IMG/VR virus record: IMGVR_UViG_3300007511_000003
Location: 64,001-128,000 of that record
DNA length: 64,000 bases
Origin: a virus
Reading direction: 5' to 3' (one strand)
This document shows positions 2,714 to 55,300 of this stretch, piece after piece. Under the pieces are notes generated by a model. The model made no database searches and was not told where the DNA came from. It saw only the letters and a program-made list of their open reading frames with translations. Every line of letters begins with the position of its first letter. Position 1 is the stretch's first letter. A program made the position numbers and the translations under genes.

Positions 2714-5700
2714 GACACGTCTCCATAGGGATTCCGACGACCAATAAAACGCTGTGCCATTCGTTGTCGGCGTTTGTTGTTGGGTTCCTTGGCAATCTCA
2801 CGGACCGCCTTGATTATCTTATCATTGATGGCTTTGTTGGCACGTGTTTGGTTGAACACGTGCCGTTTCTTGCCAGCTTTGTCGGTCGTAGACAACTCTG
2901 CGAGGTCTCCGAAATCCCTGTCCGTAAGGGTCTGGCGTTTGATAGACCGCAGACCAGAGAAGGAAAAATCATCGTCGTCCTCGTCATCACCTCCACCTTT
3001 AAGTTCCTTGATTCGGTCCTTAATCTCCGCGTCTTCCTCAAGGTCACTCATCAGGCTGTCAACAGATAGACCACCGGCAGCAGCCCACATCCGCAGAGGG
3101 ACCGGCACTCCCTTCTCGGTCAGGGTCTCCAATACTGTCAGGTACTCGGTGTCCGCCTCAGGCCGAAGGGCTTTATGCCAGTGCATGGTTGGAATAACCA
3201 GTTTACTGGTATCAGCCGTATACCACTGTACCATGTCGGTTGTCAACATAGGAGTTGTCCGACGGGCCGCCGACTCCTCAGGTGTCCTGTGTCGATAGTA
3301 AGGGTTAGGCTTTGGAGCATCCTCTTCCTTCTCAAAGCCATTGATAACCGAGATCAATGGAAACAGCTTGTTGTAAAACACCCTGTGGGTGGTCATGTCA
3401 CGGAACGCCCGCATGTGTTCAATAAACACTGACAACGCTACTTCCATCGTTCCATACGACATGTCTCCACTGTTATGTACCACGATACCGTTAGACACAA
3501 AGGCAGGTGCCACTTTGTGTTCCATGGTCAGGTCATACAAATGGGAAGTTCCAGCTGGTTTTACCTCCTGTACCGGGTCAAAGAAGTACTGGAGTTCAGA
3601 CAAGCGCACCAATCGTCTGACAACTACAGGATCAATTTGTTCCAGGATATCCAATAAATCGGAGTATAGACCTTTCTCAAAGTTAGAGTAGGGCAGGACT
3701 CCATCTCGATGTTTACCCTTCCCAACCGTTGATCCCAAGTATTTTGAGGTGCGGTGACCAAAGCCTTCAATTAAAACTGGTTGGCCTTCCGCATTTTCAA
3801 ACCACTCACCAACATTGGTTTCTCTGCGGATCCAACGGGATGCCAAGAAGTTTCGGATAGGTGGTATAGGTACCCCGAATGTACGTCCTTGTAAATCCGC
3901 TTCACGTACATCGTACTGGTTTTTTTCAGTATGGGCCAACCAAGGACGTAGACGCCTGTAAAATTTGTTCCCAAAATACCGAATAACACTTAACCATTTG
4001 GGGTGGTCAGTCATCCGAAAGCTGGGTACCCCGAGGTCCGCCAATAGTATCTGCATTTGGTCCAACAATTGGCCACTACTACTGCAAAAACGCAGAGCCA
4101 CAGTATCTTTCCTTTGGGCAACAGAGCCATCACCGTCAAGAAAAGCGGCAATGAAAGCCAATCGGCATTCCGTCGGGGCCTGAAGGATGGACCAAGGTAC
4201 TACTCTGTAGGCAGACGGATTGTTCACCTCGGATTTCCGTTTCTGTACGACCCCGAGTTCCTTCAACCAATGTACGACCTTTACCTCCTCGAAGGACATC
4301 TTGTAAACATCCGAATTGGAGGTACCCGTCACACCCTTAATGTTATACCTACGACCTTTCGGGCTACTTAAGGTCCGTTCAGGAACCACACCAAAAACAG
4401 AGGTAAAAGCCTCTTGGTATCGGTCAAGGACTCCCAGATTCGAATTCGTGATCGAAACCACGTTTTTCTTCTTAAGTGTGCCCTCAGACACGATAAGTCC
4501 TAACACATAGGCCAAATCGGGTGTCATTTCTGTCGGTTTGGTTGCAGCTTTTTGGGACCAACCTCCTTTAACCAGATAATCTGTGAGGTTCAGCCTCAGG
4601 GGTTCCGTCGCCTCCTGCCCCTGTGTGTCAATGCACAGGTAATCGGATTTTTGAAGGCGCTTCACAGGAACCCATTCCGGACGTAGGTCTTGTCCCAAAG
4701 TCAGTACCTCATGCTTCTTTGTTGTTGTGACATTATACCCGGATTGTGTAGTGGTTTTGACAACAGGTGATTTACCCCGGTACCACCAATGAATGGCTTT
4801 TGCAAACTCTCCAGAACGCCCCTTGACCAACAAATCTGTGGTGTACCCTTGGTCTTTACGTAGGCCCCTACGATCATACAATTGGTCAATAGGAATTAGG
4901 CCACGTTCCGTGTGAACATACGAGCCTTCCGCCAAACACAAAAAGCCCTCATTTATCCCAAGAGCCTGCATCTTGAGGTTGGAGGTCTCTGGAATAGTAT
5001 CCGTCCATTTCCAGGAGTCACCGCCGCTCCTGATTTCATTGGTATTCACATCATCACGTGTGGCAATCATGGCACCAACAGGATCTAAGTCCGCTTGTTG
5101 GAACAGGGCTACGATAGCCTTGAGCTCCTCATCCGTGGGTTCCCAATCCTCATCCCCTGCCACGATATGCAGGATCGACCGTTGCCTCTTTGCTGCCTCT
5201 GTCAGTGTACCCCTGTACAGGATCTTCTCCAGAAAGTAAATAGGCAGCAGCCGATGATACAACGAGGTACCACGATTGTTAAAGGTAAAGCTGCGCCTGG
5301 GTACATAAAGCGTGGTCAACGGATCGAGCGTCACCTCTGGGGCTCGCATGGCTCTCAGCATACCCGGGGACAGTCGTTCCTTCAGACGTTCGATGTGCGG
5401 TTCCCGGCTGTTGATGAACTCCTTCATGTCGGCCCCAATTTTCATCTTAATCAGAGGATCGGTGCCATACAAGGGAGTCGGAATCACAGTACAGTCGGCT
5501 ATGTTCTGTGGTATCAAATCAGTAAATAATTTCTCCGCCTTTTTAAACACGAGGGTGGATACGAAGGTGCCGAGCACGAGGTAATCTACACTCATTTCAG
5601 GCATTAGACTACGCATGTTCAGGCGGTCCAAATTGGACTCGAACACCTCCAGTTGCCTCTCATCGGCTCCGCTAAGAGTCCAATCACTGAAGGGTAGGGT

Positions 5701-52634: not shown

Positions 52635-52722
52635 TGGAGCCAGGAACAGGATTCGAACCTGCGTTGGGTTTTCGCCGTCGGCTTACAAAGCCGCTCCTCT
52701 CGGCCGCTGGAGGGACCCTGGC
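52635..52722 (-). tRNA. tRNA-Thr(TGT) with long variable region
   Basis: GCCAGGG/TCCTGGC-T-CCA; loop TT-TGT-AA; GGTTCGAATCC; 15-nt variable region. Confidence 0.75.
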
Positions 52723-52745: not shown

Positions 52746-52819
52746 TGGACCTGCGTTTGGGTAGAACCAACAACCTAAGGCTTAACAGGCCCTCACTTTA
52801 CCAACCAAACTACTGTGGA
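52746..52819 (-). pseudogene. degenerate tRNA-Asn(GTT)
   Basis: AGGGC-CTGTTAA-GCCTT arm and 3' CCA, but acceptor and T arms poorly paired. Confidence 0.5.
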
Positions 52820-52825
52820 TTAAGA

Positions 52826-52933
52826 TGGCACGTAGTAGGAATCGAACCTACGATTCTCGCTTAAACGGTTGATCAGTCCGCTATCGGCGAGCACAGACTC
52901 TGCCTGCGCGTTTACCACTCCGCCATACGTGCC
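52826..52933 (-). ncRNA. tRNA-like RNA with aberrant anticodon/variable region
   Basis: Perfect acceptor and T arm, class-II-like D arm, no canonical anticodon loop. Confidence 0.7.
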
Positions 52934-52939
52934 ACAAAG

Positions 52940-53200
52940 AAAATATGGTGTGCTATTACGCCAAAGAGGAGTTCACCCTTACCATCTCTGGGGTGGCTTA
53001 CTACTTCACCAAGTGGCGCCCGTCGCCTATCCCTCATAGCAGGTGGTCCTGCAGAGCTCTTTATTTGGATGCCGCCACCCAAACGTTAGCCTAGAGGTTT
53101 CCCTGGTTCATGCCCTTGCAATCCAGGTACGTACTACAACTAACGGCCTTTGCCTCACTCTTTAAAGGATGGCTGCTTCTAAGCCAACCTCCCATACCTT
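52940..53200 (-). ncRNA. 23S rRNA H43/H44 (uL11-binding) mimic with ~195-nt insert
   Basis: GGAGGUUGGCUUAGAAGCAGCCAUCCUUUAAAGAGU...GCGUAAUAGCACAC closed by AAGGUAUGG/CCAUAUUUU. Confidence 0.8.
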
Positions 53201-53209
53201 ATAGTATAT

Positions 53210-53581
53210 TCAATACCACGTTCGATGTTGTTCAAATACCCATTCACGACCATCGTCAGCTTCACCGATACTCCACTTAATGTCCTCCGGAATCTCTATG
53301 ACCTTCAGGTCAGGGGCCAAATCCTGGTGTTGGTTGAATGCTTCCAAGAGAGCAGGGTCATCACGCGGTATATCAAACACTGGGCAAAATCGTTCACCAT
53401 CCTTGGTGTAGTTAAAGGATGCATGTGGTTCGTCTTCATGGGCCTGGTCTTTATAAGATTGGACATACACTCCGTCCAGTTCCCACTGGAGATCAACACC
53501 AGTAGCCTGTGCCCAGGCCATCACAATTTTGTGTGGAAGGGAAAACCCACCGATTTCTTTGTTAATGAGTATATGCCTCAC
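53210..53581 (-). CDS. conserved small phage protein
   Basis: INKEIGGFSL...RDDPAL...LKVIEIP...DDGREWV.E.HRTW. Confidence 0.75.
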   Translation of the reverse strand: MRHILINKEIGGFSLPHKIVMAWAQATGVDLQWELDGVYVQSYKDQAHEDEPHASFNYTKDGERFCPVFDIPRDDPALLEAFNQHQDLAPDLKVIEIPEDIKWSIGEADDGREWVFEQHRTWY

Positions 53582-55212: not shown

Positions 55213-55300
55213 TGGTAGGGCTGGAGGGAGTTGAACCCACGGTAGGTCGCCCTACGTCGGTTTTCAAGACCGGTACCTTTAACCACTCGGCCACCCTTCC
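55213..55300 (-). pseudogene. chimeric tRNA-Ser(TGA) with non-pairing acceptor
   Basis: Ser-type D, anticodon and V arms; 5' GGAAGGG vs 3' CAGCCCT-A-CCA. Confidence 0.7.

Follow-up and report, generated by a model that had tools for sequence, protein, structure and literature searches.

The locus studied here lies on the minus strand of a 64,000-nucleotide stretch of viral DNA (the window), which belongs to an IMG/VR virus contig of 168.9 kb. With a CheckV completeness estimate of 65% at this length, the phage must be a large one. At 52943..53197 (minus) the window holds a 255-nt gene for a non-coding RNA that imitates the GTPase-associated centre (GAC) of 23S rRNA. It is a long-form member of a family described below, delimited by the family alignment A4, pair counts and a match of 52.8 bits to model R1. 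The two ends of the RNA together rebuild the 58-nt GAC domain, with H43, H44 and a closing helix.

Ten nucleotides downstream of the element sits a tRNA-like gene of 106 nt (52827..52932, minus; Rfam tRNA, 43.7 bits). It has normal acceptor, D and T arms, about 55 nt replace its anticodon and variable arms, and it receives no ARAGORN call. The same strand carries tRNA-Thr (UGU) at 52635-52722 (unusually long variable region, 85-88 nt), tRNA-Gln at 53685-53609 and tRNA-Ala at 54582-54507, together with a weak tRNA match of 33.7 bits at 55216-55297 that lacks an ARAGORN call. A partial tRNA-like sequence at 52755-52812 (minus, 24.7 bits), with GUU (Asn) in its anticodon loop, lacks a matching acceptor stem and shows degeneration of the T loop; it is probably a decayed tRNA. 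Upstream, a 123-aa ORF (phrog_16527; 53210..53581, minus) ends 13 nt from the RNA, which is surrounded by uncharacterised phage ORFs on its own strand. An earlier, sequence-only reading of this DNA had placed the RNA in a tRNA cluster, a setting borne out by the closely spaced tRNA-like gene, the three nearby tRNAs and their common strand.

How would such an RNA be expressed? Neither a promoter-like nor a terminator-like site flanks the window element on its strand. Given the adjoining tRNAs on that strand, the RNA is likely co-transcribed with them and excised by tRNA-processing enzymes, and processing of the gene at 52827..52932 would then fix its 3' end. Across the loci of the family, every tRNA detected (459/459) lies on the strand of the element. 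A tRNA occurs within 300 nt of 44 of 85 elements, and the adjacent spacers usually measure 2-12 nt. An encoded 3' CCA, as would befit a tRNA-like terminus, was considered and rejected, as it is present in 2 of 87 elements and absent from the window. No partner protein recurs within 4 kb of the element, where the best protein cluster reaches 5 of 85 loci. A phage uL11 gene is absent from this record and from five complete genomes of cultured carriers.

Rebuilding of a 23S rRNA domain around a structured insert

The two strings on which the sequence-only reading was founded are present on the minus strand exactly at 53192-53156 and 52961-52948, and their likeness to the 23S GAC is confirmed: the 5' block agrees with the Rfam bacterial LSU consensus throughout (37/37), and the 3' block does so in 13/14 positions, the sole mismatch being U1101 to A. 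Between them lies an insert of 194 nt (53155-52962), close to the ~195 nt claimed. Infernal aligned 53194-53141 to positions 1094-1147 of the bacterial LSU model (E = 1.6e-4 in a scan of the local region; 27 bits in a scan of the whole window). LSU similarity is confined to these model positions, in agreement with the claim that flanking rRNA is absent. A permissive scan of the whole window yielded no second LSU match, and a sensitive BLAST search with real rRNA operons detected no other rRNA-like DNA in the whole 168.9-kb record. The E. coli 23S reference was set aside, and the Rfam consensus and Paenibacillus 23S were used instead. In the E. coli NZ_AP024560 23S copy (L123, ~3600-3660; annotated 2859 nt), the GAC lacks AAAG of 1087-1090, probably because the AAAGAAAG repeat collapsed during assembly.

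The closing helix is formed by GUAUGG (53192..53197, minus) and CCAUAU (52943..52948, minus), the latter pairing with 53197-53192, and replaces the top of H42 (1051-1055). It had been described as UAUGG/CCAUA, changed yet still paired; this is correct, and a G.U pair lengthens it to 6 bp. Within it follows an H43-like hairpin (53166..53190, minus; rRNA 1057-1081) that is identical to the Rfam LSU consensus and bears the 1067 loop UUAGAAGCA (53182-53174, minus). The U1082-A1086 turn (UUAAA) and then G1087-A1088-G-U1090 occupy 53157..53165 (minus). On the 3' side, the H44-like hairpin (G1091-C1102; 52950..52961, minus) carries the 1095 loop GUAAUA, and its pairs are invariant in A4.

Is the insert an arbitrary interruption of this domain? 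It is not: the insert has a conserved architecture, composed of a basal helix (Pi), a tetraloop-capped arm, a UUUG linker and a variable side domain. Pi is formed by GAGG (53153..53156, minus) and CCUC (52966..52969, minus), as seen in the A4 pairs and by RNAalifold, and pairs in 100% of alignment cells. Stacked on it is the conserved, irregular insert arm (52970..53002, minus), AG / GCC-ACC-CCA-[GAGA]-UGG-UAAG-GGU-GAA / CU. From Pi outward this stack runs through two pairs, a GAA-containing internal loop, three pairs, an ACC/UAAG loop and three pairs to the tetraloop, which across the family is of the GNRA or UAAY type. The UUUG linker from Pi to H44 (52962..52965, minus) is nearly invariant, with U in 85/85, 84/85 and 85/85 elements and G in 83/85. 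The variable domain leaves from the 5' strand of the Pi-arm stack and is closed by Pv1, whose strands CCGUU (53142..53146, minus) and GACGG (53020..53024, minus) were recovered by RNAalifold from nine long-form members with compensatory changes.

Five helices had been claimed for the insert, and three of them stand. CCUGG/CCAGG (53127-53123 / 53106-53102, with the AAGGGCAU loop motif), UUUGGGUG/CAUCCAAA (53083-53076 / 53071-53064) and GCAGG/CCUGC (53052-53048 / 53043-53039) are hairpins in the interior of the variable domain (53025..53141, minus) and are present both in the free fold and in the family-constrained fold. GUUAGU and GCUAAC are complementary but compete with the family-supported Pv1 (53146-53142 / 53024-53020), which three of their bases overlap. 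The CUCUG/CAGAG helix is probably spurious, because CAGAG sits inside the family-conserved hairpin CCA-GAGA-UGG. The layout of the window interior is common to long-form members, which have a hairpin with a AAGGGCAU-type loop, a second hairpin and a third small hairpin; at the position of the second, the other members carry unrelated stem sequences. BLAST against all loci returned no close homologue of this interior, a search for relatives via the upstream protein found none, and two metagenome pattern scans for relatives of the window insert gave 0 matches and 2 unrelated long-form members.

Helices were proposed from four compact members and tested on A4, for which MAFFT aligned 49 non-redundant members, the window element among them, with no structural input. 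Model R1, built on 4 seed sequences, misplaced long inserts, and alignments A2 and A3 were excluded from counting. Covariation, the check proposed with the sequence-only reading, is present among these 49 members: 19 of 29 pairs show compensatory change (17 of 26 without the extra pairs). Pairing occurs in 95.3-95.8% of cells; shuffles give 77.7%, and a shift of the partners by 1-3 columns gives 30-54%. None of 500 shuffles reached the observed score. All 6 closing-helix pairs and all 4 Pi pairs covary, as do 1057/1081, 1058/1080 (GC 23, AU 12, UA 11) and 1082/1086 (UA 30, AU 6, CG 5). G1087-C1102 pairs in 46/49 members. U1090 and A1101 are able to pair in 49/49, which explains the family-specific change of U1101 to A. 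RNAalifold, run on the nine long-form members, independently recovers the closing helix, H43, Pi and the conserved hairpin. Besides the covarying Pv1, it added two pairs that lengthen the conserved arm and that were upheld on the 49-sequence alignment. In the insert arm, pairs 353/387 and 354/386 and the hairpin pairs covary, and ACC and UAAG are nearly invariant. The window member matches 54 of the 54 columns that are at least 90% conserved in the family and forms 26/26 modelled pairs plus the three extra ones.

Beyond the helices, the family preserves the residues by which the GAC folds in three dimensions. The tertiary contacts of the real GAC include C1072/C1092, C1072-G1099, G1071/G1091 and G1071-C1100 (PMC2952862). 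At 1072.(1092-1099), 82 of 85 elements have C.(C-G) and 3 have U.(U-A), with no mixed state. The U.(U-A) state belongs to the divergent upstream paralog of Otagovirus phages and to one copy in contig L052; Yersinia phage fHe-Yen9-04 provides a fourth case. Conn, Gutell and Draper reportedly described the same CG.C to UA.U covariation in rRNA. The neighbouring triple G1071.(G1091-C1100) is G.(G-C) in 83/85. Nearly invariant, too, are U1060 (82/85), A1088 (invariant in A4), G1071 and the H44 pairs; the residues U1060 and A1088 are present and their contact is predicted. Position 1061, naturally variable in rRNA (PMC6239185), also varies here (U57, G15, A12). A1070 is G in 17/85 elements and invariant in rRNA (PMC6239185). 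At the tip, A1067 is kept in 79/85 and A1095 in 81/85, and A1098 is conserved as well, while 1096 and 1097 vary freely. A1067 and A1095 make no contribution to the stability of the GAC fold (PMC6239185), and their conservation without a fold role points to selection on the ligand-facing tip. The element is a free-standing RNA selected to retain the secondary and tertiary fold of the GAC together with its tip residues.

A recurrent, phage-borne family

The sequence-only reading had suggested looking in phage contigs for both blocks around a variable insert, and this search uncovered a recurrent family. Anchor-based extraction from viral contigs and cultured phages gave at least 85 distinct elements of ~130 to 400 nt. 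Two IMG/VR scans with patterns that exclude real rRNA yielded 19 and 84 contigs, the majority of them 40-395 kb long. By BLAST, the two-block layout was detected in unannotated DNA of Pseudomonas phages pf16, Astolliot, Milchi and UNO-G1W1, Aeromonas phage 4_4572 and the Xanthomonas jumbo phage XacN1. A third insert type was found by BLAST in the large enterobacterial phages Cronobacter GAP32, Pectobacterium CBB and Yersinia fHe-Yen9-04, and by BLAST only in Serratia BF, several Erwinia phages and Xanthomonas XbC2. In the jumbo phages GAP32, CBB, fHe-Yen9-04 and XacN1 (L120, L121, L122 and L005), the element of this third class lies outside tRNA clusters; its insert ends in GACCCUUAGAG.NUUUGG, its closing helix has 10 bp, and a U-run or a terminator hairpin comes next. 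In XacN1, a 2'-5' RNA ligase gene precedes the element.

Some phages encode the element twice. Tandem paralogs occur in Astolliot (L001:1160-1484), Milchi (L007:1159-1483) and L052 (3847-4345), where a divergent second mimic, with a different insert type and the U.(U-A) triple, lies directly upstream of the first. Two further elements, L050:11154-11381 and L086:10637-10935, contain an extra hairpin in the 3' strand of H43, between 1078 and 1079.

Among ~186,000 prokaryotic genomes scanned with the 3' pattern, 13 contigs matched, of which ~7 are true members. Every one of these comes from a MAG or a draft assembly, in some cases on a contig with a tRNA array of the phage type, and the family is thus essentially phage-borne. 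One assembly (G001, 'Clostridiaceae bacterium', which holds L102) is the only one with both a mimic and 23S copies. It contains three differing 23S GAC variants on small contigs (L135, L137 and L138), which indicates that it is mixed. The hosts include Proteobacteria and, judging by the MAG bins that hold the element, Firmicutes, Actinobacteria and Bacteroidota.

The sequence-only reading did not recognise the RNA as a described family, and we concur: none was found in Rfam 15 or in the searchable literature, the coverage of which is thin for subscription journals. An Rfam scan of the region, also proposed at the time, retrieved no family at gathering score except tRNAs.

Possible roles of a GAC copy off the ribosome

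What would a phage gain from a GAC of its own? The sequence-only reading had offered titration of uL11, damping of RelA, a decoy for translational GTPases and bait for defence as candidate roles, between which the computed results do not discriminate. The likeliest mechanism, to which we assign a probability of roughly 55%, is that the free-standing GAC fold captures host uL11. The locus would be the gene for a stable non-coding RNA, transcribed with the adjacent tRNAs and freed by tRNA-processing enzymes. Covariation supports a fold in which its 5' 45 nt and 3' 20 nt meet via the 6-bp closing helix and take the shape of the 58-nt GAC, with H43 and H44, the turn at 1082-1086, the base triples of 1071 and 1072 and the predicted contact between U1060 and A1088; the 194-nt insert exits H44 between U1090 and G1091. 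The RNA would act off the ribosome and offer this fold to host components. Its likeliest partner would be free or exchangeable host uL11, the C-terminal domain of which recognises this tertiary structure, and the 1067 and 1095 tip loops would stay free for their usual ligands. Capture could lower the occupancy of uL11 on host ribosomes, and lowered occupancy may in turn alter RelA activation and the function of translation and release factors. The conserved insert arm probably stabilises the fold or supplies a second binding surface.

Why uL11? This is the most economical partner because the mimic covers the minimal uL11/thiostrepton domain only, without a copy of H42 and its uL10 site, of the sarcin-ricin loop or of any other rRNA region; the H42/uL10 site counts as absent because the closing helix varies in sequence. 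There is no neighbouring partner gene, and L11 recognises the folded GAC: the passage of PMC6239185 that cites Blyn 2000 states that L11 binding needs the GAC tertiary fold. As this record and the five complete carrier genomes have no uL11 gene, and no neighbour protein recurs beyond 5 of 85 loci, the partner must be host-derived. Several observations count against uL11 capture. A1070 is relaxed, the free-energy z-score of the window RNA is unremarkable (-1.27), and the insert breaks the 5' strand of H44 beside A1088-A1090 of the native core, which could alter uL11 affinity. Furthermore, most cellular uL11 is ribosome-bound, so that a sponge would need a high copy number or exchange of the protein.

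The main rival, a possible but rather doubtful one, is that the RNA serves as a decoy: a free GAC copy would absorb a GAC-directed weapon of the host or of a competitor and thereby shield the ribosomes. ADP-ribosyltransferases, nucleases, methyltransferases and thiopeptides may all be envisaged as such weapons, if with the same reserve. A decoy GAC would follow a logic similar to that proposed for phage tRNAs, which may compensate for attacks on the tRNAs of the host; the element does sit in tRNA clusters. Conservation at the tip extends to A1067, A1095 and A1098, which play no part in folding, and the divergent tandem paralogs and several insert classes suggest diversification. For the divergent paralogs and the three insert architectures, an arms race against several targets is at least as good an explanation as titration of one conserved protein. 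We know of no anti-phage system that targets the GAC, and no immunity-like or repair gene recurs beside the element. A bacterial toxin for the same site does exist, since Tre23 ADP-ribosylates H44 around 1095-1098 and blocks the GTPase activity of EF-G (PMC8661411). However, a section heading of that paper suggests actively translating ribosomes as the substrate of Tre23, a context that free RNA may fail to reproduce, and 1096 and 1097, within its target stretch, vary freely in the family.

Alternatively, the RNA, with or without uL11, might act as a sponge or platform that binds a translational GTPase or a RelA-type factor docking at the GAC and so titrates or relocates it. We regard this as unlikely. 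The GAC contacts translation cofactors through A1095 and its neighbours (PMC6239185), residues that the family conserves, and the extra conserved arm could provide a second contact. Yet the RNA lacks the second half of the factor site, as the sarcin-ricin loop has no copy in any of 107 elements (0/107), either with up to 2 mismatches or with a relaxed pattern (AGUA-C-GAGA-G-GA, the bulged-G motif with GAGA loop). The uL10/L12 stalk site (H42) is absent too, and the insert module is no copy of another rRNA region, its best nhmmer score against 16S, 23S and 5S rRNA being 10 bits.

It is very improbable that the element is a structural or processing part of a tRNA precursor, or a cis-regulatory leader, without a role in trans. 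Such a part could well abut tRNA genes at short spacers and lack a promoter and terminator of its own, as the element does, but the tertiary contacts and tip residues of the GAC are conserved far beyond the needs of a spacer, and GAP32, CBB, fHe-Yen9-04 and XacN1 carry the element away from tRNA clusters. No ribosomal-protein gene lies downstream, and no leader family matches at a meaningful score; the sole leader match at E up to 10, L19-Flavobacteria (15.3 bits, E = 8.7), falls at 53242-53259 within the upstream ORF.

The idea that the element is a piece of host rRNA, captured or in decay, a chimera made by assembly or an intron-split pair of rRNA exons can practically be dismissed, even though the blocks are nearly identical to the bacterial consensus and genuine rRNA contamination does occur in phage records (the match in Paenibacillus phage Pd_22F, L006, is contiguous genuine 23S rRNA and no member), given that similarity ends precisely where the domain does, a different but still paired helix closes it, the genome holds no other rRNA sequence, the architecture recurs in complete cultured phage genomes with compensatory changes, and the insert resembles no intron in architecture and matches no group I/II or other intron family at E up to 10. 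The view of the sequence-only reading that this is a selected stand-alone RNA, and no rRNA scrap, is upheld by the covariation, including that of a base triple, the occurrence in many unrelated phages and the absence of other rRNA.

Taken more broadly than uL11 capture, the proposal is of a widespread phage RNA family, in which large phages infecting hosts of many phyla would express a dedicated GAC-copy gene in the manner of a tRNA, to capture uL11 or whatever attacks or docks at the GAC and so to reprogram or shield translation; we hold the odds of this to be about even. If true, a virus would for the first time be seen to encode a decoy of an rRNA domain, and phage tRNAs would be joined by a new type of counter-measure directed at translation. 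Few sites of the ribosome are as conserved, or as heavily targeted, as the GAC, the point of action of uL11, EF-G, EF-Tu, RelA signalling, thiopeptides and Tre23, and a selected, self-folding viral copy implies an unrecognised interference with, or protection of, host translation by phages. The family would account for part of the non-tRNA content of phage tRNA clusters, and the element offers a natural stabilised GAC scaffold for structural work. These ideas are testable at once because cultured carriers exist, among them pf16, XacN1, GAP32, CBB, fHe-Yen9-04 and Aeromonas 4_4572.

Comparison with known RNAs

With the bacterial 23S GAC (E. coli 1051-1108), the phage element shares the H43 and H44 sequences, the 1082-1086 turn, U1060/A1088, the 1071/1072 triples including their covariation, A1067, A1095 and a free position 1061. 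Unlike the rRNA domain, it is a stand-alone gene in which H42 gives way to an arbitrary closing helix of 6-11 bp, U1101 is changed to an A that pairs with U1090, A1070 is relaxed, and a structured insert of 40 to >300 nt separates 1090 from 1091. Ribosomal-protein leaders, such as L10_leader (RF00557) and the L1-binding leader of the L11 operon, likewise imitate the rRNA site of a protein off the ribosome. They act in cis upstream of ribosomal-protein genes, however, and copy a local motif, whereas the phage RNA is encoded in trans, among tRNAs, and copies a whole tertiary domain.

T4 rnaC and rnaD are small, stable orphan RNAs beside phage tRNA genes with which they are co-processed, as the element would be. 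They are no members of the family, as there is no relation in sequence or structure; with filters off, the best R1 score in the T4 tRNA region is 8.4 bits. ROOL and GOLLD are structured non-coding RNAs often located near phage tRNA genes. Both are in Rfam, neither matches the element, and they bear no resemblance to rRNA. The likeness to 6S RNA and to viral decoy RNAs, to which the element is not homologous, lies in the proposed logic by which an abundant RNA mimics a target and sequesters its partner; in the case of the phage RNA, the structure mimicked is a functional centre of the ribosome, and sequestration is the proposed outcome.
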